Shown here piece after piece: positions 7,087-34,613 of a stretch of 64,000 nt of DNA. Under the pieces are notes generated by a model, which searched no databases, was not told the DNA's origin, and saw only the letters and a list, made by a program, of their open reading frames with translations. Made by a program: the position numbers and the translations under genes. Numbering within the stretch: the first letter of the stretch is position 1; each line of letters begins with the position of its first letter. This DNA is from a phage, in sequence record PZ476263.1; one strand, given 5' to 3'.

Positions 7087-7419
7087 ATGATTGTTGATTT
7101 AATGGCAGTATTAAAAGCACTATGGGGCCTATTAACATTCATTCTTTTAGGTGCACTTAAGATATTTTATTCCGACTTCAAAAAATTGGAGTCCCGTCAA
7201 AGTGAACTTGAAAAGGATGTTCTGCGACTTAAAGAATCTGCGGTCACTAAGGATAGTATTGATGCGATCCTTGACCGAAAAATAAAACATATTACTGATA
7301 CCATTCAAGATATCCGCGAAGATATCACCGACATGAGAAGGGAGGCTAAGGAAGAGAACCATGCTCTTCAGCGTGATATTCGCGAATTGTTGAATAAGAT
7401 CATAGAGGGTCGTAAATGA
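7087..7419 (+). CDS. small membrane protein with coiled-coil
   Basis: 110 aa; N-terminal hydrophobic helix (LWGLLTFILLGAL) then charged coiled-coil. Confidence 0.5.
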   Translation: MIVDLMAVLKALWGLLTFILLGALKIFYSDFKKLESRQSELEKDVLRLKESAVTKDSIDAILDRKIKHITDTIQDIREDITDMRREAKEENHALQRDIRELLNKIIEGRK

Positions 7420-7874
7420 TTACAGCCATAATATATGGCCTTTGTTTTGTAATCCTTGCAACCCGAAAAGAGAGTGGCACGAAGATGGTGGCGGGGATTT
7501 GCCTCGCCTACCTGATTATCGAAAATATAATTTTGTATTATTTCAGCGGTATGATCGTCTTTGACATTTCTCTTTATTTTAATGTCCTCTGGGCATTGGA
7601 TTCGATACTGCTTTTCACTTTAGGTTGCACAGTGAAAGGATTAAGACAAAAGCTAATAGTCGGACTCAGTATACCTTTTATGCTTGTCCAAGTGTTTGCA
7701 ATCCAATACCCAGAACTTTTCCCTCTTTGGGTGTATGAATTCGCTTTCAAGGATGCCCACAAATATTTCATAGAGGTATTTGTGTTTGTATTTTCTTGGA
7801 AGGATAATACAGTCCCTGAGTGGATCAGAACAGCCATAGTAATATTTCTGGTCTTGATTGCTCATTTGGTCTGA
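7416..7874 (+). CDS. polytopic membrane protein
   Basis: 152 aa with at least four hydrophobic segments; ATGA overlap with upstream gene. Confidence 0.5.
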   Translation: MITAIIYGLCFVILATRKESGTKMVAGICLAYLIIENIILYYFSGMIVFDISLYFNVLWALDSILLFTLGCTVKGLRQKLIVGLSIPFMLVQVFAIQYPELFPLWVYEFAFKDAHKYFIEVFVFVFSWKDNTVPEWIRTAIVIFLVLIAHLV

Positions 7875-17615: not shown

Positions 17616-17813
17616 TTATTTTCCTTTCTTTGTAATGATGAGTTTAAATTTACCATACACTGAATCAGAAAACAAGACATCAACTAAAGAATTATCGTCC
17701 GCTTTAACTTTAAGAAAGTTGCGATTGCCACATTGATTAATGACTTCATACTCCTTACCTTCACTAAAAAGACCCCAACCCTTAAAATTACTTTTCTCAC
17801 AGAGTAGCTTCAT
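17616..17813 (-). CDS. hypothetical protein
   Basis: 65-aa ORF. Confidence 0.4.
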   Translation of the reverse strand: MKLLCEKSNFKGWGLFSEGKEYEVINQCGNRNFLKVKADDNSLVDVLFSDSVYGKFKLIITKKGK

Positions 17814-17888
17814 ATTTTATCCCCTTCTCGTCATTTGATGTAGAGATTATAGTTCATAAAGTATGGACCTGTCAACATATTTATATAA

Positions 17889-22752: not shown

Positions 22753-23651
22753 TTAGTGACAATCTCCCCAGCTGTATCCACACAAGTATTCCCCTGTGAT
22801 ATGCACTGGTGATTTCATCATCTTAGCTGCTTGTTCGACACAACGAACAACCATCTCTCCTACAGGGCAGTATGTAATAGTGAAGATACCATTTTCATCT
22901 GGATCACACTTAAACTTACCTTCCTTGACACAATGGCCTTCGAGGACCATCTTCTTAGCAAGACATGCCTCAACAAAAGCTTTTGCATCAGCTTCGTTAT
23001 CAAACTTCCATACCTTTTTGAACTTCTCCGGCACTTCAAGCTGGTACTCGTCATGGTAATAAATTGTACGACGTACACCTTGATCATACCAACCTTTTTT
23101 AACCAGCTGCCAATGCAACAGGATACCTACCAAGTCAAACATGGCAGCACCACCGTTCTGTTGGAAAGCGTTAAGCAATGAGTGTTTGGATCGGGTATAG
23201 ATCTTACGACCATCAAGACCATAAATGAATCGTTTACCGTTGGCTTCCCAAAACTTCTCAAGTGCTTCTTTACGACCTTTCAAACCTAAGTTGCTATCCC
23301 AAAATGCATCGATTACTGCTTGTGCTTTCTCCAATGAAATTCCAAGCATGGATGCAATCTTAGCTGCTTGAGCACCGTACATAATTCCATAGGTGATCCC
23401 CTTTCCTTCCCCACGAGATACTTTCTTACCCGCTGCCTTGGTATATGCTTCTGCGTTTCGACTATGAGCATCACCACTTTCCATAATTCGGAGGTAAGCA
23501 CCACCATCGAATTCATAACTTCCCCATGCAGCGACCATACCCTCTAAGTTAGAACCGTCTATACCTACCTGATACTTACCCTCGGGTACAGTGAAAAGGT
23601 CACGCATTTCTTTACCTAGAAGAACCTTAGGATCAGGCTTCGGCACGTTAG
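22753..23651 (-). CDS. DNA polymerase, family A (T7 gp5-like), 3' exon: palm/fingers from motif A to C-terminus
   Basis: GIDGSNLEGMV (motif A region), KGITYGIMYGA, GLDGRKIYTRSKHSLLNAFQQNGGA, YHDEYQLEV (motif C), C-terminus ...SWGDCH; parallels the T7 DNA polymerase C-terminal half as recalled; 5' boundary approximate. Confidence 0.85.
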
Positions 23652-24875
23652 CACAATATGTTCGTTAAAGGTCGCAACTCTTTAACCGGGATCGTATACA
23701 CCTGAAGAAATATCTCTTCACACTTTCGAGTACGATTCCTGTTTCTTTTGCTACGTCACAGAAATCTTTCCCATCAAGTATCATTTTTGTTATCTCTAGT
23801 TCCAACTCTTCTTTAGTTTTGTTTCTTAACTTACTGACCCCAAAAGTTTTATCTTCGGCAAATTTACCGATAAAAAATCTAACTGTCGGTTTCTCTAAGT
23901 TTAGGATCTCACAAATCTTTAAAAGAGTCGCACCTTTCCACCATAAAGATCTTGCTTCTTCTGCAAGATGTTTCTTTTCTTCCACTTCAGAAACACATTT
24001 CCCCATGTCGAAAGTTTTTAAGTATCTTGCTGCAAAGTGCCTTTCTTGTCCAAGGTCCAGAGAGATTTTTGCATACGAATCACCTGCCAGATATCTTTTA
24101 TGGATGTGCAGATACATCTCTCCATAGTTATCAAAGCCGGATTGTTTTGCTCTATTATCTCTTTTTGCCATTGAACTTCTTTCAGATGCGATAGTTTTTA
24201 TGGACTCACCAAAAGAGTTTCCAATTGCATCTGGACTAGGACTCACCGCTGAAAAAGTATTATTAGTCATGTTATAGAATTCTGTATTGTTGGCTGCATC
24301 ATTCTCTAAAAGAACTTTTTCTTCGATTTCACGAAGGAGATCTCTTTTGTCTACAACTTCCAACACCTCAGCTACAAATCTATGACCACTTTTTAAATCC
24401 TTTTTCATATCTGGATTGGAAGAGGACCCAAGATAAGGTTTTCCACTCTTAATCGAGATTATTGTGGGGATTCCATCCACATCTATCACTTTGCATTCAC
24501 TTTTACTTCCGATATATTTGTTCGGGTATTCTTCTTTATCGATGTTTTTCAAGAGATAAACAATGTTCATGTATACGTCCTCCGCTGTATCTTTCAACAC
24601 AGTTCAGACTATATCTTTGACACACTAAAGGATAGCTGAACCAATCTACCCCTAATGTATCACAAACCACTTCGATTGTCTACGCTTACAATCTACGCCT
24701 TCCGGCTAGTCGTTGAACCTTCTACCTGTCTGGTAGCTTGGCTGCTGATTGCCCAATCCTTTAACTTTTTAAACCTTCGCTTTGTATTCCTACTCGCAGT
24801 GGTATAAAGGCTCTAAGGGGTTCCCAGCAATTCAATTTGTTTTATACTGAGGCAGCTTTAGTTTACCACAGTGTG
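23652..24875 (-). mobile_element. group I intron interrupting the DNA polymerase gene, carrying a GIY-YIG homing endonuclease ORF
   Basis: All four conserved core elements on - strand RNA: P AAUUGCUGGGAAC (rc of 24820-24832), Q AAUCAGCAGCC (rc of 24740-24750), R GUUCAACGACUAGCC (rc of 24704-24718), S AAGAUAUAGUCUGAAC (rc of 24602-24617); polymerase reading frame resumes after the inserted ORF; exact splice sites not resolved. Confidence 0.75.
23665..24600 (-). CDS. GIY-YIG family homing endonuclease (intron-encoded)
   Basis: 311 aa; N-terminal MNIVYLLKNI...NKYIGSKSE matches the GIY...YIG module; Lys-rich C-terminal half; RBS GGAGGA; located inside the intron downstream of core element S. Confidence 0.75.
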   Translation of the reverse strand: MLKDTAEDVYMNIVYLLKNIDKEEYPNKYIGSKSECKVIDVDGIPTIISIKSGKPYLGSSSNPDMKKDLKSGHRFVAEVLEVVDKRDLLREIEEKVLLENDAANNTEFYNMTNNTFSAVSPSPDAIGNSFGESIKTIASERSSMAKRDNRAKQSGFDNYGEMYLHIHKRYLAGDSYAKISLDLGQERHFAARYLKTFDMGKCVSEVEEKKHLAEEARSLWWKGATLLKICEILNLEKPTVRFFIGKFAEDKTFGVSKLRNKTKEELELEITKMILDGKDFCDVAKETGIVLESVKRYFFRCIRSRLKSCDL

Positions 24876-26594
24876 TTTACGACGGCCTGTATTCGTTATT
24901 CCAGTATAACGTGCAGGTAATTTACCGTCCACCGCAAGTCGAGGATGGTTTAACCAACCTGTATCTACTTTATCCTCTTTCAAAGGATCAAGAACACTTC
25001 GACGGTTACGAAGAGATAGCCATTTTACAATCTGCTTTGCCATATCACCATCGACTCGCTCAAGGTTAGGACAAAGGCCCTGCTGATCCTTAAGCTGCGG
25101 TGATGTTGGTAATGCTCTTGCCTTCTTCCTGAAGAACTTATACATCTTCTCTTTATCTTGCCACTGCTTACCACTGATACCTAAACTTTTCAGAATCAGA
25201 TCGCGATATTCAGTCTGGTCAAGATCATCAATGTATTGACGAACAATGATATCGACTTCGTTATCGGGACGTTGTTTCTTAAACTGGTCCTTCGTCGCAT
25301 CTTTGGTTCGCCACAATGTTGGGACCCAACCCGCATCACGAATAAGGAATTTTTTAACGTCATCCTGATTACCAATACGCATCGGAATCATAATATCCGG
25401 CATCTTTTGATCTTTGATATCCATCAATGCACGGGCCATGTCTTCCGGTGGCAAAGGTACAAGATTTTCCTTTTTCACATTTTGAGAACGAATAAATTCA
25501 GCCATTTTGGATTCATCTTCTACACCATGCTCTACACAATACTTAATTGCAGCAGATGTGAGTGAACCATCGCCCTTAAACGGCTTACTTGGAGCGCCTT
25601 TAAATTCAAGAGCTTCCCAATTCACATTGTAACCTAACTTCTCTAACCATTTCCAGCCCGTACCAGAAAGAGATCCATCTCCTTTAAACGGCTTAGACGG
25701 GAAAGTAGGCTGTGCTGACTTGGACATCTCTTTCTTCGGCAGCTTTGGTTCAACCTCTTCTTCAATTTCTTTCATCATCGTATCAATACGATCACGCAAA
25801 GCTAAACCTTTCTCCACGTCGAAAGTAACACCCTGAATTTCTTGCTCAACCATCAAATAGTCGGTAAGCATACCTCGACGCAAGGCATTCTTCCAATTGA
25901 TGAGCTTCATCTTCTTCGGATCTTTGTCCGATTCATCTTTGTACATGAAACGTTTATCATCCGGCATAGAGTCACATGAAATTTCTTTCATGAGGGCATC
26001 CCATACCATTTCGTTGATGATTACGTCTTCAATAATACGATCACAATATTTCCACAAAGGGAGTCCACGCCAATCTTCGATTGCTACCTTCTGGTTTGCT
26101 ACTCGCATACCCCAAGCTTCAAGTCCATGAGGGCCTACAGGCTTCATTTTACCTGTAACTGGGTTCTTTACCATCTCGGGACAACCGCGCGGCAGAGGGC
26201 GATCTGGATACAGTGTACGGGACATTGAAAGGGTATCGAAGATGTTAACTTGTTTACCATTGATAGTCCCCATGCAACCAGGGTCTGCAAACATATCGTA
26301 TGTTGTTCCAAACATCTTTTTAAACAGCTGTAAGTCATAGCCGAAGATATTATGGATAGCAACAGCTTTTGGTTCAGTCACAAACCACTCATTAAGTTCT
26401 TCCAACTTACGGATCTTAAAGTTCTTACCTTTGGATTGAATAAACTTAACCGCTTGCTCGTAGCCTTCGCGGTTCGGATCGATAAAAATATTCCAATTGT
26501 CCTTTTTGTACTCTTTAAAAAGAACACAGTGAACAAGATCAACTTCTGTCAACAGGCCGTTAGCCTCTGCATCTCCAATAAACAAACCTTTCAT
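24858..26594 (-). CDS. DNA polymerase, family A (T7 gp5-like), 5' exon: 3'-5' exonuclease domain plus N-terminal part of polymerase domain
   Basis: FIGDAEANGL (Exo I), GPHGLEAWGMRV and GWVPT match T7 gp5 landmarks as recalled; ends ...TGRRKHTVVN just before the conserved PNL(Q)xIP region; last codons and stop probably intron-encoded. Confidence 0.85.
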   Translation of the reverse strand: MKGLFIGDAEANGLLTEVDLVHCVLFKEYKKDNWNIFIDPNREGYEQAVKFIQSKGKNFKIRKLEELNEWFVTEPKAVAIHNIFGYDLQLFKKMFGTTYDMFADPGCMGTINGKQVNIFDTLSMSRTLYPDRPLPRGCPEMVKNPVTGKMKPVGPHGLEAWGMRVANQKVAIEDWRGLPLWKYCDRIIEDVIINEMVWDALMKEISCDSMPDDKRFMYKDESDKDPKKMKLINWKNALRRGMLTDYLMVEQEIQGVTFDVEKGLALRDRIDTMMKEIEEEVEPKLPKKEMSKSAQPTFPSKPFKGDGSLSGTGWKWLEKLGYNVNWEALEFKGAPSKPFKGDGSLTSAAIKYCVEHGVEDESKMAEFIRSQNVKKENLVPLPPEDMARALMDIKDQKMPDIMIPMRIGNQDDVKKFLIRDAGWVPTLWRTKDATKDQFKKQRPDNEVDIIVRQYIDDLDQTEYRDLILKSLGISGKQWQDKEKMYKFFRKKARALPTSPQLKDQQGLCPNLERVDGDMAKQIVKWLSLRNRRSVLDPLKEDKVDTGWLNHPRLAVDGKLPARYTGITNTGRRKHTVVN

Positions 26595-26678: not shown

Positions 26679-26912
26679 TTAATCTTCAATCAATTCGAAT
26701 TCTGGAGCGAAGAGAACTATATTTTGGTCCTCTTCACCTGCCCAGATCCTTGCTGTACAAGGCTTGCCGCTTTTACAACAAAAGTAAACATCGGCCTCGT
26801 AGATATCTCCTACAGAAATTCCATAAGAAGAAAGACTAACGCCATTGGTATCGGGAATGTCGTTCTTTCTGATCTTTATCGAAATTTCTTTTTCTACATA
26901 TGTATTTCTCAA
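26679..26912 (-). CDS. hypothetical protein
   Basis: 77-aa ORF. Confidence 0.45.
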   Translation of the reverse strand: MRNTYVEKEISIKIRKNDIPDTNGVSLSSYGISVGDIYEADVYFCCKSGKPCTARIWAGEEDQNIVLFAPEFELIED

Positions 26913-27352
26913 CGTTCAATCTCCTTCTTTTTGGACATAGTGATGAAATAGTTCTGACCTTTCTTGCACTGGTTAAACCAGCCAACAAGATATCCATCTT
27001 CGATACGAATATCATACTCAGGGTATTCGCCCGTTCCACTGATTATATGGAAAAGTTTACCGAAGTCAATAAAGGTCAGATTATACTGAAAGTTTTCCTC
27101 GTCCTGGAAGATTGCAACAGCAGAGCTTCGGCCCTTTGACGTAGTAATAAACTTAAGTTTAAGTTCACGATGCTCATGATCGACAATGTTAACTTTTCTC
27201 TCAAGCAAGTAATTTGGGTCAACACGGGGCCAATGAGCTTTAAATCTTTCAGCGCCTTCTTCAGTAAAGGCATCACCATCGTAACCAGTAAACCATTTAC
27301 CATTATCTTTTACGTAGCCATGATAACTACGCTTACCTTTTACTTTAATCAT
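26909..27352 (-). CDS. hypothetical protein
   Basis: 147-aa ORF. Confidence 0.5.
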   Translation of the reverse strand: MIKVKGKRSYHGYVKDNGKWFTGYDGDAFTEEGAERFKAHWPRVDPNYLLERKVNIVDHEHRELKLKFITTSKGRSSAVAIFQDEENFQYNLTFIDFGKLFHIISGTGEYPEYDIRIEDGYLVGWFNQCKKGQNYFITMSKKKEIER

Positions 27353-27552
27353 TCCGTTATCTCCTCTTGTTCTGGATCTTCGATCATTGAGCTTTTAACT
27401 CTTGACCCGTATGTGGTCATTTCACCCGACCTACTCGAACCCTCAGGTGCTCTTATGACAGCATGACCTCTTAATAGTGTTCCTTCGTAGGTTTGTCCAA
27501 CTACAAAACCCATTTGGGAAACACCATTATCTCTATAACAAAGTAAATTCAT
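27349..27552 (-). CDS. small paralogue array member 11 (divergent)
   Basis: 67 aa; GQTYEG...IEDPEQEE; shares family scaffold. Confidence 0.55.
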   Translation of the reverse strand: MNLLCYRDNGVSQMGFVVGQTYEGTLLRGHAVIRAPEGSSRSGEMTTYGSRVKSSMIEDPEQEEITE

Positions 27553-27763
27553 CGTTCTCTATTTTAATTTCCTCTGTGATTTTATTTTCGGGATCAAGAA
27601 TAAGGCATGACTTTTTACACGGCACGGAATAAAACAACCCCCGCTCGTTTGGACAGATAATTAAAATATTTCGACCTCCCATATCTTTACCCTCGTAAGA
27701 CTCTCCTACCATTACCCCTTTGTCCCTCAGGAAACTATCCTCTTTTATGTAGATATACCTCAT
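27533..27763 (-). CDS. small paralogue array member 10
   Basis: 76 aa; MRYIYIKED...VGESYEG...ILDPE. Confidence 0.6.
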   Translation of the reverse strand: MRYIYIKEDSFLRDKGVMVGESYEGKDMGGRNILIICPNERGLFYSVPCKKSCLILDPENKITEEIKIENDEFTLL

Positions 27764-27960
27764 AGGCTGTTTTCCTCAGGGTCAAGAATAAAATGTTTAT
27801 CTTCGCAAAATCCCCAGTTATTTTCTCGTCCTAATGGATAGATACAGAGAATATTTTTCTTTATACTTGCATATTTCCCTTCATAAGTACAGCCTATTTC
27901 TACATGTTTCCAAGTAGGAACACTTAAGCATATGTATTTTTTAAATGTTTCTTCATTCAT
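27760..27960 (-). CDS. small paralogue array member 9
   Basis: About 66 aa from internal Met (track ORF to 27984); KKYICLS...IGCTYEG...LCIYPLG...ILDPEE. Confidence 0.6.
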   Translation of the reverse strand: MNEETFKKYICLSVPTWKHVEIGCTYEGKYASIKKNILCIYPLGRENNWGFCEDKHFILDPEENSL

Positions 27961-28156
27961 TTTGGTCCTCCCCCTCAGGGTCAATAACGAAGTGTATAGA
28001 ATTTAAATATCTTATCCCACCATCCAACCCTGTCGGGTAGATACAAAGATAGTGAAGCATTACGCTATCTTCACATCCATAATAAGTCGATCCTAAAGAA
28101 ACTTGACTGCTTGCTTTATCTGATAAGCAGATGTACTTTTTTAAATCCTGTTTCAT
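27953..28156 (-). CDS. small paralogue array member 8
   Basis: 67 aa; KKYICLSD...GSTYYG...LCIYPTG...VIDPEGE. Confidence 0.6.
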   Translation of the reverse strand: MKQDLKKYICLSDKASSQVSLGSTYYGCEDSVMLHYLCIYPTGLDGGIRYLNSIHFVIDPEGEDQNE

Positions 28157-28359
28157 TCATTAACCTCCTCAGGGTCGAGAATGAAATCATTAAAATCGCA
28201 AATTATCCAATCAGCAGACCAAGGGTGATGACCATCAGGGAAAATATATAGAACACCAGGTATCATTCCCCCTATAAAACCTGTATATGTCTCGCCTATT
28301 TTGACAAGATCCTCGTTACTTTTTATACAGAGGAACTTTTTAGTGTTTTTATCTCTCAT
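28153..28359 (-). CDS. small paralogue array member 7
   Basis: 68 aa; KKFLCIKS...IGETYTG...LYIFPDG...ILDPEE. Confidence 0.6.
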   Translation of the reverse strand: MRDKNTKKFLCIKSNEDLVKIGETYTGFIGGMIPGVLYIFPDGHHPWSADWIICDFNDFILDPEEVNE

Positions 28360-28565
28360 TTTTTAATATCCTCTGGTTCCTTTGCAAAACTCTTAGTGCC
28401 TATATATACCCATCCACTACCTATTCCATGAGGATATATACAAAGTGCATCCGACATTGTACTGTCGAATCCTGAATAAGTCTCCCCCAAATTAAGATTT
28501 GAGCATCCTTTGGTGCTTATGCATATGTAATTTTGAATATACATTTCAGGTTTTTGTTTCATTTT
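28356..28565 (-). CDS. small paralogue array member 6
   Basis: About 69 aa from internal Met (track ORF to 28622); NYICIS...LGETYSG...LCIYPHG. Confidence 0.55.
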   Translation of the reverse strand, partial: KMKQKPEMYIQNYICISTKGCSNLNLGETYSGFDSTMSDALCIYPHGIGSGWVYIGTKSFAKEPEDIKK

Positions 28566-28566
28566 A

Positions 28567-28764
28567 TTACTCCTCGTGCTCGGGGTCAAGAACGAAGTCC
28601 GCAGAATGATAGTACACACCATAAGTTTCTATCCCTTTCGGAAAAATATGAAGATAGTTGCTCATTAAAATATCTTTACGACCATAATAGGTCAATCCTT
28701 GAGAGATTGCTGTACCTGCCTCATCAGATATGCAAAGATACTTTTTAAATCCTATTTCACTCAT
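28567..28764 (-). CDS. small paralogue array member 5
   Basis: 65 aa; KKYLCISD...GLTYYG...LHIFPKG...VLDPEHEE. Confidence 0.6.
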   Translation of the reverse strand: MSEIGFKKYLCISDEAGTAISQGLTYYGRKDILMSNYLHIFPKGIETYGVYYHSADFVLDPEHEE

Positions 28765-28953
28765 TTAATCTCCTTCCGGATCAGCCGCTAAGCAAGATCC
28801 CTTACAAGGTGCTGACCTGAGCCAACCCTCATCGTTTAAATAGTAAATGATAATAACAGCATCTCCTATACCCTCAGTGCCTTCGTAAGATTCTCCTATT
28901 ATCAACGGGTAGTCTTCCAAAAGGCGATCTTCTTTTATGTAGATATATTTCAT
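28765..28953 (-). CDS. small paralogue array member 4
   Basis: 62 aa; MKYIYIKED...IGESYEG...AADPEGD. Confidence 0.6.
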   Translation of the reverse strand: MKYIYIKEDRLLEDYPLIIGESYEGTEGIGDAVIIIYYLNDEGWLRSAPCKGSCLAADPEGD

Positions 28954-29145
28954 TTATTCATCGCCTTCGGGATCTTCGACAAAATTATCTAACTTTACAG
29001 GCATAGATAAATTATCAGTCACCTTCACTGTGATGTAAATACTTTGAAAAGATTTAAATTTATTCTCTTCCCGATAAGTCTCGCCAACTACCAAGAGTTT
29101 AGAGTCCTTATTTTGTATGCATAGATAATTTGTCATTGTTTTCAC
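28954..29145 (-). CDS. small paralogue array member 3
   Basis: 63 aa; NYLCIQN...VGETYRE...VEDPEGDE. Confidence 0.6.
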   Translation of the reverse strand: MKTMTNYLCIQNKDSKLLVVGETYREENKFKSFQSIYITVKVTDNLSMPVKLDNFVEDPEGDE

Positions 29146-29345
29146 CTGTATTCAGGGTCTTCCGTGAAACTCTCCTTATTGAAAAATAGAGTAGTATCTT
29201 CATTTGGGAACGTTATAGGTATGTACTTACCCCGAGGAATACTATCGTTTATAAAGTAAGTCATACCTAATTGAAGTTTAGTGCTGTGTATGTTACTTAT
29301 ACATATAACCCCGACAAATCTTTCACCCTTCCTCTCCTTCTTCAT
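29142..29345 (-). CDS. small paralogue array member 2
   Basis: 67 aa; VGVICISN...LGMTYF...TEDPEYR. Confidence 0.55.
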   Translation of the reverse strand: MKKERKGERFVGVICISNIHSTKLQLGMTYFINDSIPRGKYIPITFPNEDTTLFFNKESFTEDPEYR

Positions 29346-29532
29346 ATATTTCAGGATCCTCTACAAAATCAGATTTCTTAAGCCATAGTTCCAAAGTATC
29401 ACTTACCCTTACGGATATCTGCCCACCAAATATTTTAGATGGTCTTACATAGTAAGTTTCTCCGATTACAAGTTTGTAAGTAGACCTATTGCTAACGCAG
29501 AGAAACTTAACATATTTTTGCTGTATACTCAT
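29323..29532 (-). CDS. small paralogue array member 1
   Basis: 69 aa; KFLCVSN...IGETYY...VEDPEIYEE. Confidence 0.55.
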   Translation of the reverse strand: MSIQQKYVKFLCVSNRSTYKLVIGETYYVRPSKIFGGQISVRVSDTLELWLKKSDFVEDPEIYEEGEEG

Positions 29533-29849
29533 GCAAGGCTTCGAACATACTCAAAGACTTTTTCATAATCTTCACCAAAGGAAACATAACCACTTCCCTT
29601 CGGATTGTCTAAACCATATGAATCGTCTTCAAATTTTTCCAGAATGATCCCGCCAGTGTATTCGATATACATCAAATCTCGTACTTTTGTCCACTTACCT
29701 ATACCAAAGGAAGCGAGATCTTTTTTGCAAATTTTAACATGCATATCTTTCTCTCCAGTATGATAGATATAAACATCCCCACTTTGGAGCTGTTCAACAA
29801 TGACCTCTGGAAAGATACCGCTTTGTGATTTACCGAATACCTTTTTCAT
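29529..29849 (-). CDS. hypothetical protein
   Basis: 106-aa ORF immediately upstream of the array. Confidence 0.5.
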   Translation of the reverse strand: MKKVFGKSQSGIFPEVIVEQLQSGDVYIYHTGEKDMHVKICKKDLASFGIGKWTKVRDLMYIEYTGGIILEKFEDDSYGLDNPKGSGYVSFGEDYEKVFEYVRSLA

Positions 29850-29863
29850 TTTACCCCCAATAA

Positions 29864-30544
29864 TTAGTGATTGAATTTAAAAACTGCCCGTGCAAAACCT
29901 TCTGGTGTTAGTGATCGCAATTGTTTTGTCCGATCAGACTTTCCACCTAAATACCGCCATCCCCAAAAACATCCAATATGTTCAACAGGTTTCTTTTCAG
30001 GCATTATAAACCCATTTCCTGACCAAAGGCAAGTCTTTTTAGTGTAGGCATTCTGTAAAGGCATCTGAGGATGATAAGAACCTTCGTGTGGTTCCAGATA
30101 ACCCCCATACTCATACGGATCAAAGTAATGGTCAGGTTTTCGCCATAGGGTACTCATCTTTCCTACAGGATTCTCCACAAACCAAGGACAATTAAATGTA
30201 TTCGCAATCCGCTCTACCATTTTTGCATTGATGATTGACTCCATCAACTGATCATTAGTCCTCTCATGTTTTGCACCCGCTACCGTTAAGTTTGTGCAAG
30301 AAGGGAAAGAGAAGATGATATCTGGCTTTGGGATACCCGCTTTGGCTGCAAAGGCTTCAAAATTATCATCAATCCAACAATTCACATACTCAATATTTGG
30401 ATGCTCTTTACGCATCTTGTACTGACCGTGATCCGCCGTATCGGCATTGAAGCAATAAACTTTCCAACCTGCCTTTGCATACTCATAGCCCATAAAGCCA
30501 CTACCGTCAAAAAGCGACCAAACCACTTTAAAAATATTAATCAT
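29864..30544 (-). CDS. putative DNA (cytosine-5)-methyltransferase-like protein (short)
   Basis: 226 aa; motif I-like LFDGSGFMG, motif IV-like FSFPSCTNL (PC dipeptide), motif VI-like FVENPVG (ENV); too short for a canonical enzyme with target-recognition domain. Confidence 0.5.
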   Translation of the reverse strand: MINIFKVVWSLFDGSGFMGYEYAKAGWKVYCFNADTADHGQYKMRKEHPNIEYVNCWIDDNFEAFAAKAGIPKPDIIFSFPSCTNLTVAGAKHERTNDQLMESIINAKMVERIANTFNCPWFVENPVGKMSTLWRKPDHYFDPYEYGGYLEPHEGSYHPQMPLQNAYTKKTCLWSGNGFIMPEKKPVEHIGCFWGWRYLGGKSDRTKQLRSLTPEGFARAVFKFNH

Positions 30545-31921: not shown

Positions 31922-32091
31922 TGTGCATTCTCCTCTGAAGGGCCTTCTTTAGCCTTTGCAATTGCGTTAATAGTGATTATATAGCTATCTTGTAAGTTTT
32001 CAAGCTCTTTCTTAGTGTCAAAAGGATACCATCCATCTTTAGACATCTTGGCTATGGTTTCGTAATCATCAAATTTCACATCTGAAGGCAT
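31921..32091 (-). CDS. hypothetical small protein (not in ORF track, <60 aa)
   Basis: 57-aa ORF read from reverse complement; TAATG and ATGA overlaps couple it to both neighbours. Confidence 0.4.
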
Positions 32092-32468
32092 TAGCATAAT
32101 TTTACCTCTTTGTTCAGAAAGTCTTTGGCAATAAGACGGATAATTTCTTCTGCGTTTTCAGAATTTACCACACCATAGTTCTTGAAAGGTAAAATGGTGT
32201 CTTCACAAACTTCTTCGAAGAATTTAAATTCGTCATCACATATTTCAAAATATTCGTCACCATTCTCCAGGCAAGTTAACTTTTTTCCATTTATACACAA
32301 AGCCTCTTCAATAAAATAAACCTCATTGAAAAGTCCAATTTTCGTAGGACAAAACACACCACCATTAGAATTAAGTAAATTTACCATTGGGGTGTTGGAA
32401 CGAGGATTATCCTCGACAAACTCAGAGACACGAGATTCTTTTAATTTGTACCATTTACCTAATTCCAT
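32091..32468 (-). CDS. hypothetical protein
   Basis: 125-aa ORF. Confidence 0.5.
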   Translation of the reverse strand: MELGKWYKLKESRVSEFVEDNPRSNTPMVNLLNSNGGVFCPTKIGLFNEVYFIEEALCINGKKLTCLENGDEYFEICDDEFKFFEEVCEDTILPFKNYGVVNSENAEEIIRLIAKDFLNKEVKLC

Positions 32469-32533
32469 CTTCTTTTCCTCTTTTATTGTGTTGATGAGAT
32501 AAGTATAAGGATATTTTAGGTGGCTGTCAATAG

Positions 32534-32562
32534 AAAAACCACCCCGAAGGGTGGTTTATTTT
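32534..32562. terminator. bidirectional rho-independent terminator downstream of primase-helicase
   Basis: CCACCC-cgaa-GGGTGG hairpin flanked by A-run and T-run. Confidence 0.7.
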
Positions 32563-32570
32563 GAAAAATA

Positions 32571-34613
32571 TCAGAAAGGTGCTTCCTCGTCGAAATCCAC
32601 ATCTTCAACTTCCGGTACGTCTGGAATGTTTGCTGCCGCTTCGACAATATCTTGTTGCTCCCAAATCTCTTCCATAGGTTGTCCAAGTTCTTCCATTACT
32701 TCCTTCATCTCTTGCTTCTGAGCTTCAAGGAAGTTTTCATCCGGATCTGGAATGTCCTCTTCTGTGATATCCGAACGGGTAAGGTCCGAATTACTTTCCG
32801 ACAGAGGCTGGATTTCAGCTGCCTTTGGCTTAAAGTCTGGAGAACGATGATCATCTTCTGGATGTGCTGCATACCATTCCCGAAGAGTCTCATATGGACT
32901 GTCCAAAAAGCCTTCTGGCGGCTCAAGGTAATCACCCGTGTCAATGTCATAGAACACAGGGAATTTACCAGCACGACCGTGTTTACGGTCATCCAGAATA
33001 ACAAACCATGAAGTATTTCGTTGCTTCATAGGTAGTTCTGGATCTTTGTTACGCTCAATACCCCACATGTAATACGTGTTACGCATCATTGCACGACTAC
33101 CAGCAAACTGAGCTGATTGAACTTGACCACCAAACTCGTGTGGCTTACCTGCATCTGGCTTATTGAGGTGGCAGAAGCAATAATAAGTAAAACCAAGTTC
33201 TTTAGCCAGCTTGGAGATCTCATCAGAGAACCGCTCAAGTTCCTGGTTAGCCTCTGACGCACTCATACCCTGAACAAGTCGAGTGATCGGGTCAATAAAG
33301 ATATCTTCACACCCTTCTACGATTACAGCATGGCGGATAGCACCTTTCAGTTCATCCCATACTGCACGACCATAGTTGTTATAGTAAATTACACTATCAC
33401 CAACTTCATCTGTCGCCTTGATCAGCTCTTCCTGCTTAAAGTATCCACGTTGACCTTCAAAAACTTCATTGCCCCAAATGTCACGGTAAGTCCCGTCAGG
33501 TTGCGGAAGCATTACTTTTTCTGCGTTAACGAAGTCTTTATGATATCGCTTACCTGCAATCTTCTTACAGGTGATTTCGTTCTCTTCTTCAAACTTAAAT
33601 ACCGCTGCTTTTGCTTTCTCTACGCCAGTGATATGTTCAACCAGCTGGTTAAGCAATTCACTCTTACCCATTTTTACACCCGCACCAATGAAGTAACCTT
33701 CACCGAGGCGACGGCCCAAAGTAAGTTTTGTCAGTGTAGGCCAAGGGAATTTTTTACCCAGCTTAGGGATTTCATGAGCCTTTTCACGGAATTGTGAATA
33801 AGTTGAAAAACCGTCCGGTACATATTCCTTTGGTTTCATTGCTGCCCAAAACAACTGATCAGCAAGACCTTTGTTATACATGTCACAAGGGTCCATATCT
33901 TCAGGGATATCGACCACCTTCATTTGAGGAATAACAGAGTAAACTGCGGCAACCGCATCTTTACCCTTCATAATTCCTTTTGCTTTTTCTGCTTCAGTTG
34001 CCCGATCCGCATCGAAAGCTACAATAATCTCATCAAACTTACTTAACAGCTTATAGTTGTTCTTTTGTGACAAGTTCTGAACAGCGTTAGAAGTTCCGTT
34101 AGAGATGGAAACAACTGTGAAGTTCGGTTTACGTGTCGCACCATCTTTGGGTTTATACTTTTCACGAAGAACTTGCCAAAGAACGGCAGCATCGTATTCA
34201 CCCTCAGTGATAAAGATCATTCGTTTGGAGGATTTATTAGCACCTTCAAGACCAAACAGATCACAAGCTACCGATTGAAAACCGATAGTTGTAAAATGAC
34301 CTTTCTGCTGTTTTGGGATTGTAAGATCACGCTTCTTAAAACCTACAATCTTCCCATCCAAAGTATACGGAAAGTAATGTGCTTCTGCCGAAAGACCGTC
34401 TTTTGCGGAAAGCTTAGTACGAATACCAAAACGCTCTGCTGTCTTTTCATCGATACCACGCTCAGGGATTGCTTTGAACGGATAAGTCATTACATCTGCA
34501 ACTGTTTCTTCTACTCGCGAAGAACTGCTACCAAAACTACGTTGAACACTGGCCTTTGGATTCTTATGCCCAAATTTGTAACCGCCAAACAAACTTTCTC
34601 CGATGGTACTCAT
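32571..34613 (-). CDS. DNA primase-helicase (T7 gp4-like)
   Basis: 680 aa; TOPRIM-like motifs IFITEGEYDAAV and IIVAFDAD; Walker A GAGVKMGKSEL; acidic C-terminus ending ...DVDFDEEAPF; no N-terminal Cys zinc ribbon visible. Confidence 0.85.
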   Translation of the reverse strand: MSTIGESLFGGYKFGHKNPKASVQRSFGSSSSRVEETVADVMTYPFKAIPERGIDEKTAERFGIRTKLSAKDGLSAEAHYFPYTLDGKIVGFKKRDLTIPKQQKGHFTTIGFQSVACDLFGLEGANKSSKRMIFITEGEYDAAVLWQVLREKYKPKDGATRKPNFTVVSISNGTSNAVQNLSQKNNYKLLSKFDEIIVAFDADRATEAEKAKGIMKGKDAVAAVYSVIPQMKVVDIPEDMDPCDMYNKGLADQLFWAAMKPKEYVPDGFSTYSQFREKAHEIPKLGKKFPWPTLTKLTLGRRLGEGYFIGAGVKMGKSELLNQLVEHITGVEKAKAAVFKFEEENEITCKKIAGKRYHKDFVNAEKVMLPQPDGTYRDIWGNEVFEGQRGYFKQEELIKATDEVGDSVIYYNNYGRAVWDELKGAIRHAVIVEGCEDIFIDPITRLVQGMSASEANQELERFSDEISKLAKELGFTYYCFCHLNKPDAGKPHEFGGQVQSAQFAGSRAMMRNTYYMWGIERNKDPELPMKQRNTSWFVILDDRKHGRAGKFPVFYDIDTGDYLEPPEGFLDSPYETLREWYAAHPEDDHRSPDFKPKAAEIQPLSESNSDLTRSDITEEDIPDPDENFLEAQKQEMKEVMEELGQPMEEIWEQQDIVEAAANIPDVPEVEDVDFDEEAPF

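Follow-up and report, generated by a model that had tools for sequence, protein, structure and literature searches.

Multigene families of large eukaryotic DNA viruses, the 'genomic accordions', and the orphan immunity-gene arrays of bacterial polymorphic-toxin loci are believed to keep pace with targets that vary in a host or competitor. In lytic phages, most of the small early genes lack a known function, and among them, families that are expanded and rapidly reshuffled rank with the best leads for host-takeover or counter-defence proteins. In T4, the small counter-defence gene tifA has been found amplified in tandem (Srikant, Guegler and Laub 2022, PMC9391042), while Nip of phage phi3T, directed against SpbK, and Orf65/TifA of an enterococcal phage, directed against type IV restriction, are counter-defence proteins with SH3-like domains (PMC11984713, PMC11322646).

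Here, we analyzed a window of 64,000 nucleotides (PZ476263.1) from a lytic, coliphage-like virus, in which 11 minus-strand genes are real, diverged copies of one mini-protein. Their copy number and order shift between related phages by recombination, which makes the array a good candidate for a host-interaction or anti-defence toolkit. No description of the family was found in the literature.

Eleven tandem genes of one mini-protein family

The ORF listing places exactly 11 successive, closely packed genes of one family, 60-76 aa in length, at 27349-29532 on the minus strand (Table 1). All members are linked by pairwise blastp, with E-values down to 1e-17 (reached between D1 and D2, members 4 and 10), and they fall into three subgroups, {A,B,C}, {E,F,G,H,I}, and {D1,D2,J}, with identities of 17-45% between array copies. 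A family HMM searched against the 817 six-frame ORFs of the window matched exactly these 11 (E 1e-14 to 1e-26; next-best ORF, E 0.012). HMMs built with one subtype left out recovered every member at E 1e-12 to 1e-21, except for D2 (5e-7), D1 (1e-4), and J (8e-5), with the best non-family ORF at E 0.001-0.2. The homology between the members thus goes beyond chance. A preliminary description made from the letters alone had proposed eleven consecutive minus-strand paralogues, produced by repeated duplication and diversification of a small domain and belonging to no recognised family. The ORF list, pairwise blastp, and family HMM bear out the first part, and together with the leave-one-out HMMs they place the paralogy, and with it the duplication, on solid ground. 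The protein alignment and HMM searches that it had suggested as a check gave statistical support to the paralogy and led to no characterised family, and searches of Pfam, PHROGs, NCBIfam, and the PDB ended without a match.

Table 1. Coordinates of the array members, flanking genes, and junction repeat in the window
Feature	Position	Strand	Remarks
Member 1, subtype A, 69 aa	29323-29532	-	ATG overlaps stop of upstream 106-aa gene by 4 nt; left-out HMM E 7.6e-13
Member 2, subtype B, 67 aa	29142-29345	-	23-nt overlap with member 1; left-out HMM E 1.6e-12
Member 3, subtype C, GTG start (63 aa) or ATG start at 29136 (60 aa)	28954-29145	-	Left-out HMM E 7.5e-14
Member 4, subtype D first copy (D1), 62 aa	28765-28953	-	YIYIKED-type N-terminus; left-out HMM E 1.1e-4
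Member 5, subtype E, 65 aa	28567-28764	-	Left-out HMM E 1.4e-18
Member 6, subtype F, 68 aa from ATG at 28562	28356-28562	-	Left-out HMM E 9.9e-14
Member 7, subtype G, 68 aa	28153-28359	-	Left-out HMM E 4e-13
Member 8, subtype H, 67 aa	27953-28156	-	Modelled as five-stranded SH3-like barrel
Member 9, subtype I, 66 aa from ATG	27760-27960	-	TTG-started 74-aa ORF reaches 27984; left-out HMM E 2.6e-21
Member 10, subtype D second copy (D2), 76 aa	27533-27763	-	Longer tail ending DEFTLL; left-out HMM E 4.5e-7
Member 11, subtype J, 67 aa	27349-27552	-	Left-out HMM E 7.7e-5; model pLDDT 79.8
DNA methyltransferase-like gene, 226 aa	29864-30544	-	phrog_757, E 3e-82; conserved left border of variable slot
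106-aa gene directly upstream of array	29529-29849	-	Homologues in same clade only; no Pfam or PHROG match
147-aa gene, phrog_7983	26909-27352	-	Conserved right border of slot; 4-nt overlap with member 11
Junction repeat, 3 copies	27773-27816, 27972-28015, 28166-28209		Encodes F-I-L-D-P-E and tail

The genes are tightly packed, with overlaps to the preceding gene, from member 1 to member 11, of 4, 23, 4, 0, 0, -4, 4, 4, 8, 4, and 20 nt. For member 6, a longer 88-aa ORF that extends to 28622 and overlaps member 5 is an unlikely reading. Start and stop codons overlap or abut, and an AGGAG-like sequence lies 5-11 nt upstream at 8 of the 12 array junctions, within the upstream gene, where the codons of the acidic tail double as Shine-Dalgarno-like sequences for the next gene. 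This geometry makes translational coupling along the array plausible. Promoter-like matches are not enriched (36 found versus 29 +/- 5 expected from shuffles), and explanations by an RNA or a DNA repeat were dropped after no Rfam match was obtained and Tandem Repeats Finder reported no array, the DNA copies being too diverged apart from the junction string. Elsewhere in the window, we found neither further copies of the family, the only borderline ORF lying at 17616-17816, nor a second paralogue family.

Conserved motifs, variable segments, and the junction repeat

The family signature consists of ICI, G-x-T-Y, D-P-E, and an acidic tail; in the alignment, the G and Y of G-x-T/S-Y and the P-E of D-P-E are invariant, and the D is at least 90% conserved. 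Of the motif scaffold first proposed, G-x-T-Y and D-P-E stood as described, while I-Y-P-x-G proved typical of subgroup E-I only. The high variability noted between these anchors was also confirmed, in that the entropy between subtypes peaks in strand 4 and three loops, notably loops 2 and 3, whereas strands 1, 2, and 5 and D-P-E have the lowest values. Orthologues differ at a rate of 0.167 in loops 1-3, strand 4, and the turn versus 0.089 in strands 1, 2, 3, and 5 and D-P-E, and their most variable segment is the tail (0.44), which in most members comprises 2-8 residues after D-P-E.

The conserved C-terminus had been reported as visible even at the nucleotide level, and indeed cctcagggtcaagaa recurs at the junctions at 27773, 27972, and 28166, and a shorter form occurs at 27588, 27776, and 28580. 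This junction-repeat sequence class hosts recombination breakpoints. Synonymous variation of the D-P-E codons indicates that the constraint on the conserved C-terminus acts at the level of the protein. The alternative that D-P-E is kept solely as a ribosome-binding site for the next gene or as a recombination site was rejected, as all synonymous codons are in use; it is also contradicted by the retention of the motif in J, which precedes a non-member gene, and in the second domain of P0030, a fusion protein of 221 aa.

Predicted fold and comparison with known families

Structure prediction, another check that had been suggested, returned a five-stranded SH3-like barrel for both subtypes modelled with AF2 (H, pLDDT 82.8; J, pLDDT 79.8), with the same order of the five strands and the beta-barrel topology of the SH3 type. 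As modelled, the family consists of stand-alone SH3-fold mini-proteins of 60-76 aa. The array proteins share 5-20% sequence identity with eukaryotic-type SH3 domains (e.g., PDB 2cre, 2vkn, 2drm); unlike these, they carry a signature of their own and are not parts of larger proteins. The PxxP-binding residues (ALYDY in the RT loop, WW at strand c, and the P/Y of SNY in the 3-10 helix) are absent from the family alignments. Since a generic barrel of this kind binds peptide, nucleic acid, or sugar, the SH3-like fold leaves the function unspecified.

Profile searches agreed in finding no established family. Neither single members nor the 28 aligned sequences matched Pfam, PHROGs, or NCBIfam, no SH3 family in Pfam was hit by any of the 28 members even at E up to 5, and a sequence-profile search of the PDB returned no hit up to E 10. 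Matches were also lacking to the KOW, Sm, and Sso7d profiles, to Pfam LSM or Hfq, and to the Acb2/Tad1 hairpin (PF24729), and the models begin with a strand, unlike Sm/LSm/Hfq proteins with their N-terminal helix. A tentative link leads to P0035 (DUF6501/DUF7244, phrog_4927 repeat module), which the family profile matched at E 2e-4 in 1.84 billion proteins with a score summed over four repeats. The two share the N-terminal-half pattern C-[IV]-x(3)-G-x(3)-L-x(2)-G-x-[ST]-Y, and hhalign gave a probability of 55% over the N-terminal 35 columns only; the P0035-type module lacks D-P-E, unlike the array family, and no array member matches DUF6501 (PF20111) or the related PHROGs directly. Long proteins retrieved by the exhaustive search (e.g., P0018, P0022, P0032) were judged spurious, being internally repetitive and matching the profile only in several short partial pieces. 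A second profile iteration with the distant homologues added brought in no new families.

Turnover of the array by recombination

Among related phages, copy number is 7, 8, 9, or 11, and 14 subtypes are combined in six architectures. All arrays agree in their first and last positions; subtype J, the most conserved member, takes the last place in every one, and subtype A has orthologues in loci L002-L007 and L011. Gene boundaries are the same in more than ten independent assemblies. Gene callers missed some of the short ORFs in related contigs, as with J, which is uncalled in L002-L004.

While the family originated by old tandem duplications, its present remodelling proceeds by homologous recombination, with crossovers at the gene ends that encode the conserved motifs (5' 'ICI' and 3' 'F-x-L-D-P-E plus tail'), and related phages therefore differ in their sets and orders of cassettes. 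Breakpoints were located at 29297 (about codon 16 of subtype B), at 28589-28596 in the D-P-E-coding end of subtype E, at 27973, and at 27794-27799 in subtype I. The K gene in L002 is a clear chimera of B/K half-cassettes, and the window compared with L003 is a mosaic in which dS is 0 in some genes and 0.2-0.4 in others.

Orthologues evolve mostly under purifying selection (dN/dS mostly 0.03-0.36), with J at 0.03-0.15 and subtype F highest at 0.6-0.8. As these values lie mostly well below 1, they give no direct indication of an arms race, with subtype F as a possible exception. Between paralogues, dN/dS was abandoned because synonymous sites are saturated, which puts positive selection between them beyond testing.

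Distribution and genomic neighbourhood

In an exhaustive scan of 1.84 billion protein representatives, nearly all occurrences of the family came from a single small clade of Vequintavirinae-like metagenomic phages. Searching the array DNA or the 11 concatenated proteins against 50,697 GenBank phage records (megablast, blastn, tblastn) gave no match, a scan of IMG/VR with member J revealed no relative, and DNA-pattern scanning of JGI metagenome contigs returned 0 matches. The closest cultured phage, Escherichia phage A7_1, has a polymerase that is 93% identical and lacks the array family.

The array and the 106-aa gene upstream of it sit in a variable slot between the DNA methyltransferase and DNA polymerase genes. 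The gene run holding the array begins upstream of the methyltransferase gene, runs on into the DNA polymerase gene, and also includes primase/helicase genes; such a position among replication genes would fit a phage-internal role too. The 106-aa gene is present in all array-bearing loci and absent from A7_1, and it is probably part of the same inserted module as the array. In A7_1, where the methyltransferase-like gene has a 45% identical orthologue, the slot is filled by other genes, so that its content differs between close relatives in the manner of an accessory island (six architectures; other genes in A7_1). One A7_1 gene, A71_161, encodes an Acb2/Tad1-hairpin protein (PF24729, E 1.4e-16) and is flanked by the orthologues of the two genes that come next after the array. 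No known counter-defence gene was found within the window's own slot. The neighbourhood argument for counter-defence is weak: the Acb2-like gene belongs to a different phage, and replication modules often contain methyltransferase genes.

Proposed function and alternative explanations

We tentatively favour the view that the array is a repertoire of small, cassette-shuffled binding proteins for host interaction or counter-defence. Each paralogue would be a small cytoplasmic binding protein, made early or mid infection as judged from the sequence. Its barrel would be built and capped by the conserved strands, G-x-T-Y, and D-P-E, the last probably serving as a helix N-capping box, and a paralogue-specific binding surface would be formed by the variable loops (RT, n-Src, and distal equivalents) and strand 4. 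With translation coupled along the array through the Shine-Dalgarno-like sequences of the acidic tails and the start/stop overlaps, such a repertoire of binders or inhibitors would act on variable host proteins, most plausibly anti-phage defence components or other strain-variable host factors, and changes in the repertoire would adjust which hosts can be infected. We infer a likeness to families that bind variable targets, as the preliminary description did, and this likeness is strengthened because the canonical ligand-binding loops of the SH3-like fold are the variable segments and because cassettes turn over between related phages. No array member matched any of the known anti-defence families. 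A bolder version, which we hold to be possible and rather doubtful, would make the array a recombination-driven specificity library. Here, the motif-coding gene ends of SH3-fold inhibitors would act as crossover sites at which co-infecting relatives swap cassettes and half-cassettes, and each inhibitor would neutralise its own variant of a host defence effector that is polymorphic, giving a phage-side counterpart of the bacterial immunity-gene arrays and a new anti-defence family.

The mini-proteins might instead be phage-internal adaptors that dock on phage or host replication, recombination, or transcription machinery, for example via the acidic D-P-E tail, and tune DNA metabolism with no part in counter-defence. 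Such a role would suit an array placed in one gene run with primase/helicase, methyltransferase, and DNA polymerase genes, the conservation of member J and of the first and last positions, and an acidic C-terminus that recalls the tails through which T7 gp2.5/gp4 and SSB make their replisome contacts. We nevertheless regard it as unlikely, given that the closest relative is wholly without the family despite its near-identical polymerase, that 7-11 copies of changing composition are unusual for parts of a core machine, and that the tails are short and the most variable segment between orthologues. Still less probable is the view that the mini-proteins are small nucleic-acid-binding barrels (Sso7d-, KOW-, Sm-, or Tudor-like) with a role in shielding DNA or RNA or in controlling the expression of phage or host genes. 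The barrel cores carry a net charge of -5 to +4, which is near neutral to acidic, whole-protein pI is 4.2-5.6 with one exception of 7.9, the N-terminal Sm helix and matches to the KOW, Sm, and Sso7d profiles are missing, and the P0035 link is itself tentative.

Tight packing of similarly sized genes on one strand would also accommodate the subunits of a single hetero-oligomer, such as a ring of paralogous barrels kept in fixed proportions by translational coupling, and rings of this kind exist elsewhere, as in the eukaryotic Sm/LSm heptamers. This is very improbable here, where stoichiometry is not kept (7, 8, 9, or 11 genes, changing order, subtype D duplicated) and the Sm motifs and N-terminal helix are absent. 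Hardly credible is the reading that there is no functional family at all, the pattern stemming from artefacts of gene calling, from duplicates in decay, or from a single long repeat protein that frameshifts or assembly errors have split. The ORFs are indeed very short, have no annotated homologues, and in part escape gene callers; however, the orthologues are under purifying selection, each gene has its own start and stop codon and most have an SD-like sequence, boundaries are identical across the independent assemblies, the AF2 models are confident, and the D-P-E codons are synonymously variable.

The favoured repertoire of binding proteins is open to direct tests of specificity, owing to a compact scaffold that is modelled with confidence, to the 14 variants found in nature, and to crossovers at gene ends through which the repertoire is seen to change. 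If the members are inhibitors, they would represent a new anti-defence family and a natural phage 'binder library' that could serve to engineer the host range of therapeutic coliphages; if their role is phage-internal, the array would still be a clear, modest case of multigene-family evolution in a phage.

Comparison with known systems

Nip and Orf65 resemble the array proteins in that predicted SH3-like domains help them neutralise a host defence protein, and Orf65 is strongly acidic too. Both are single-copy, multi-domain proteins of Firmicutes phages, Nip having 279 aa and an HU-like dimerisation domain, and the likeness to the array is at the level of the fold only. The 'genomic accordions' and the orphan immunity arrays share with the phage array diverged tandem paralogues whose number and content vary between close relatives; they involve other organisms, folds, and sizes, and the analogy is one of evolutionary mode only. 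The T4 tifA copies are identical and come from laboratory evolution, whereas the array copies are old, 17-45% identical, and kept as distinct subtypes, and no sequence kinship is expected. The parallel with T4 lies in the mode: a lytic coliphage expands a small accessory gene into tandem copies through recombination, and the accessory repertoire is tied to host range.

Paralogy of the array genes

The ORF listing of the window reveals 11 consecutive minus-strand ORFs, with start codons picked to fit the family alignment and with neighbors that overlap by 4-23 nt, abut, or leave a 4-nt gap. At the two ends of the array, 4-nt overlaps join the first member to the stop of the upstream 106-aa gene and the last member to the start of the downstream 147-aa gene. 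The family alignment spans the full length of all members, with no variation at the G and Y of G-x-T/S-Y or at the P-E of D-P-E. Pairwise blastp (E down to 1e-17) resolved three connected subgroups (A/B/C, E/F/G/H/I, and D1/D2/J, where D1 and D2 are the two subtype-D copies), and a family HMM applied to the 817 ORFs from all six frames of the window selected exactly the 11 array ORFs. HMMs built without the tested subtype recovered nine members at E 1e-12 to 1e-21 and D1, D2, and J at E 5e-7 to 1e-4, with the top unrelated ORF at 0.001-0.2. Paralogy of the 11 members is statistically solid, and both the paralogs of the preliminary description and the recurring nucleotide string that it placed at the gene junctions are borne out.

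At the DNA level the copies were too diverged to register with Tandem Repeats Finder, a Rfam search of the array region matched no family, and the array was the only paralogous family found within the 64-kb window. Outside the family, the HMM scored best in the window (E 0.012) on a 66-aa ORF (MKLLCEKSNFKGWGLFSEGKEYEV...), which has the C-x(n)-G-x-x-Y pattern in common with the array members but no D-P-E and may be a lone, distant relative.

Features of the window and of related loci
Feature	Position	Strand	Remarks
66-aa ORF	17616-17816	-	
DNA polymerase A gene, split	22753-26594	-	
Polymerase C-terminal part	22753-23646	-	297 aa
ORF between polymerase parts	23665-24600		311 aa; weak GIY-YIG/SegE-like homing-endonuclease similarity (Pfam E 0.0025, phrog_7504 E 1e-5)
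Polymerase N-terminal part	24858-26594	-	578 aa
147-aa gene	downstream of array	-	phrog_7983
Array	27349-29532	-	11 ORFs, 60-76 codons each
Breakpoint	27794-27799		D-P-E end of I
Breakpoint	27973		D-P-E end of H
Breakpoint	28589-28596		D-P-E end of E
Breakpoint	29297		codon 16 of B, just past ICI motif
DNA methyltransferase-like gene	29864-30544	-	phrog_757, E 3e-82; 226-aa allele
FRD2-family gene	32091-32468	-	PF03197, E 1.7e-18
Promoter-like site ranked best	32530-32502	-	TTGACA-17-TATACT
Terminator-like hairpin	32557-32536	-	AAACCACCC-TTCG-GGGTGGTTT, then T run
Primase/helicase gene	32571-34613		one ORF of 680-681 aa, as in L004, L006, L008
Primase/helicase, L002	50-1778		called as 165-aa and 366-aa ORFs
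Primase/helicase, L003	1-1389		called as 165-aa and 366-aa ORFs
Primase/helicase, L005	169-2964		called as 314-aa, 165-aa, and 367-aa ORFs
Methyltransferase, L005	4991-5701		236-aa allele
Methyltransferase, L008	4787-5497		236-aa allele
A71_161, phage A7_1 (L001)	7318-7602		94 aa; Acb2/Tad1 hairpin PF24729, E 1.4e-16, above curated cut-off
221-aa and 124-aa genes, L009	4297-5338		

Array architectures and cassette exchange

Clustering of all members at ≥55% identity defined 14 subtypes within the clade, arranged in six architectures. The ends are stable (A or N first, D J last), and the middle is reshuffled. The earlier proposal of repeated duplication and diversification of a small domain is supported.

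Array architectures in the window and in related loci
Loci	Order	Copies
Window, L003	A B C D E F G H I D J	11
L002	A K L F G H I D J	9
L004, L011	A B C G M E D D J	9
L008	N K L F G H D J	8
L005-L007	A K H L F G D J	8
L012	N K F G H D J	7

Colinearity of the relatives with the window is interrupted at few places only, listed as breakpoints. The L002 K gene is chimeric: 49 of its leading 51 nt match the window B gene, and beyond them it has 36% identity to B and 90-94% to its K counterparts in L005 and L008. The junction on the right in L002 falls in a stretch that the E and L genes have in common at their 3' ends, TTCTTGACCCCGAG[C/T]ACGAGGAGTAA, with 26 of 27 nt identical. Moreover, the window and the 97%-identical L003 form a mosaic, with dS of 0 for A, C, E, and F and 0.2-0.4 for H, D2, and J. 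The breakpoints, the chimera, and the mosaic dS therefore establish the conserved motif-coding gene ends as crossover sites at which cassettes are exchanged.

Predicted fold, variability, and the D-P-E motif

AlphaFold2 models of H (pLDDT 82.8) and of J, the most divergent member (pLDDT 79.8), agree in their five strands and in strand order. The array proteins are modeled as SH3-like in fold but do not belong to the SH3 family; the canonical PxxP-binding residues that eukaryotic SH3 domains carry are missing from them, and the likeness is one of fold only. When the family alignment was mapped onto the model, entropy was lowest in strands 1, 2, and 5 and D-P-E. It peaked in strand 4 and loops 2 and 3, and loop 1 too exceeded the conserved strands; the three loops correspond to the RT, n-Src, and distal loops. 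Orthologs differ at a rate of 0.167 in loops 1-3, strand 4, and the turn versus 0.089 in strands 1, 2, 3, and 5 and D-P-E, and the tail after D-P-E is their most variable segment (0.44). The barrel cores are approximately neutral, and the tails turn most proteins acidic (pI 4.2-5.6).

All synonymous alternatives are in use at the D-P-E codons (GAT 27, GAC 27; CCT 30, CCC 13, CCG 6, CCA 11; GAA 32, GAG 28), and the motif is retained in J, whose next gene is a non-member, and within the second domain of the fusion protein P0030, so the constraint acts at the protein level. In both models D-P-E starts a short helical turn after the final strand, and D-P-E-E is reminiscent of a classical helix N-capping box, which would offer a simple structural reason for its conservation. 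Codons of the Glu/Gly-rich tail, such as GAGGAG and GGAGA, also yield AGGAG-like sequences 5-11 nt ahead of the next start at eight of the 12 junctions; the tail is thus dual-use, which supports, rather than proves, translational coupling along the array.

Genomic neighborhood

The DNA polymerase A fragment adjoining the array has 93% identity to its counterpart in Escherichia phage A7_1, an unclassified member of Vequintavirinae, and 82-83% to those in Cronobacter and Pectobacterium phages, so the window derives from a large, lytic phage of myovirus type that probably infects Enterobacteriaceae. The minus-strand order is primase/helicase, FRD2-family gene, several small genes, methyltransferase-like gene, 106-aa gene, array, 147-aa gene, 77-aa gene, and DNA polymerase. 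A consensus scan listed no terminator-like sites inside the array. The strongest promoter-like sites, at 32530 and 32003, are upstream, and such matches showed no enrichment relative to shuffled sequence, so that co-transcription of the array and the replication genes is something that we infer. The best-ranked site directly follows a strong terminator-like hairpin between the helicase and FRD2 genes, and this pair (32502-32557) is likely a transcription-unit boundary upstream of the array. A segment of the FRD2-family protein, ALCINGKKLTCLENGDEYF, recalls the N-terminal half-motif of the array family at a similarity far below significance.

A7_1 orthologs of the methyltransferase, 147-aa, and 77-aa genes have 41-45% identity. 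A7_1 lacks the 106-aa gene, found solely in the array-bearing clade, as well as the array, and the slot between its methyltransferase and 147-aa orthologs instead holds a 405-aa phrog_6077 protein and a 110-aa protein. Its gene A71_161 lies between the orthologs of the 147-aa and 77-aa genes, which come after the array; in the window, no gene occupies the matching position. The methyltransferase-like gene exists as two very different alleles within the clade: the 226-aa allele is 99-100% identical among the window, L002, L003, and L004, and the 236-aa allele has 46% identity to it, a distance similar to that of the A7_1 gene. Mosaicism thus extends to the left flank of the array.

The polymerase gene, split in the window, is a single unbroken gene of 876-877 aa in L002-L005; in L008 the polymerase ORF measures 779 aa, and an HNH_3 gene lies two genes downstream of it. 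The separately called primase/helicase ORFs of L002, L003, and L005 may mark a further replication gene that is split or carries an insertion.

Distribution of the family

Database searches indicate a very narrow distribution. A profile search of 5.8 billion clustered proteins returned 17 clusters, all on a few long phage contigs, and exhaustive HMMER over 1.84 billion representatives returned 29 matches at E ≤1e-3, the credible ones being the array-bearing clade and three distant proteins. P0036 is a single-domain protein of 82 aa; P0030 (221 aa) has two tandem domain copies and a helical tail, and an adjoining 124-aa gene also carries the domain at its N-terminus. On L009, an unrelated phage-like contig, the P0030-type 221-aa and 124-aa proteins have similar helical C-terminal tails (...MNELLDEL...). 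The third, P0035 (270 aa, four repeats), carries Pfam DUF6501, to which the family is tentatively linked (hhalign probability 55% over 35 columns). Searches of 50,697 GenBank phage records with megablast, blastn, and tblastn and a DNA-pattern scan of JGI metagenome contigs gave no match to the array, and an IMG/VR scan with member J gave no relative. Likewise, Pfam, PHROGs, NCBIfam, and PDB sequences gave no consistent match, in line with the original failure to recognize a known family.

Candidate role of the array and comparison with known systems

The reading that we tentatively favor is that the array would be a repertoire of small binders or inhibitors against variable host proteins, most plausibly defense components. 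The family is accessory, clade-specific, expanded, and shuffled; among its most variable segments are the equivalents of the loops that, in SH3-type barrels, make up or adjoin the ligand surface; the array occupies a variable slot adjoining a methyltransferase gene; and the counterpart neighborhood of A7_1 has an Acb2/Tad1-hairpin gene, from a known family of immune-signal sponges. Against host-directed binding, the SH3-like fold is generic, the neighborhood evidence is indirect, and orthologs are mostly under purifying selection.

Another point against host-directed binding is the place of the array among replication genes, which fits a phage-internal adaptor equally well. A role as a replisome or transcription adaptor is rather doubtful overall; nucleic-acid binding is unlikely, and a hetero-oligomeric ring very improbable. 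A non-functional artifact is scarcely credible: gene boundaries are identical across >10 independent metagenomic assemblies, and ortholog dN/dS is 0.03-0.36 in nearly all subtypes, tightest in J (0.03-0.15) with F as the outlier (0.6-0.8), indicating that the array ORFs are real genes. The remaining probability belongs to functions outside those named.

Overall, the array is a good, experimentally tractable lead with a candidate role. There are precedents for the favored reading: T4 multiplies tifA in tandem (PMC9391042), and Nip and Orf65 are SH3-like-domain counter-defense proteins of other phages (PMC11984713, PMC11322646). The SH3-like fold and tandem paralog families in viruses are already known; the family as a set of sequences and a phage array of 11 copies are new, and exchange of cassettes and half-cassettes is directly visible at conserved gene ends.
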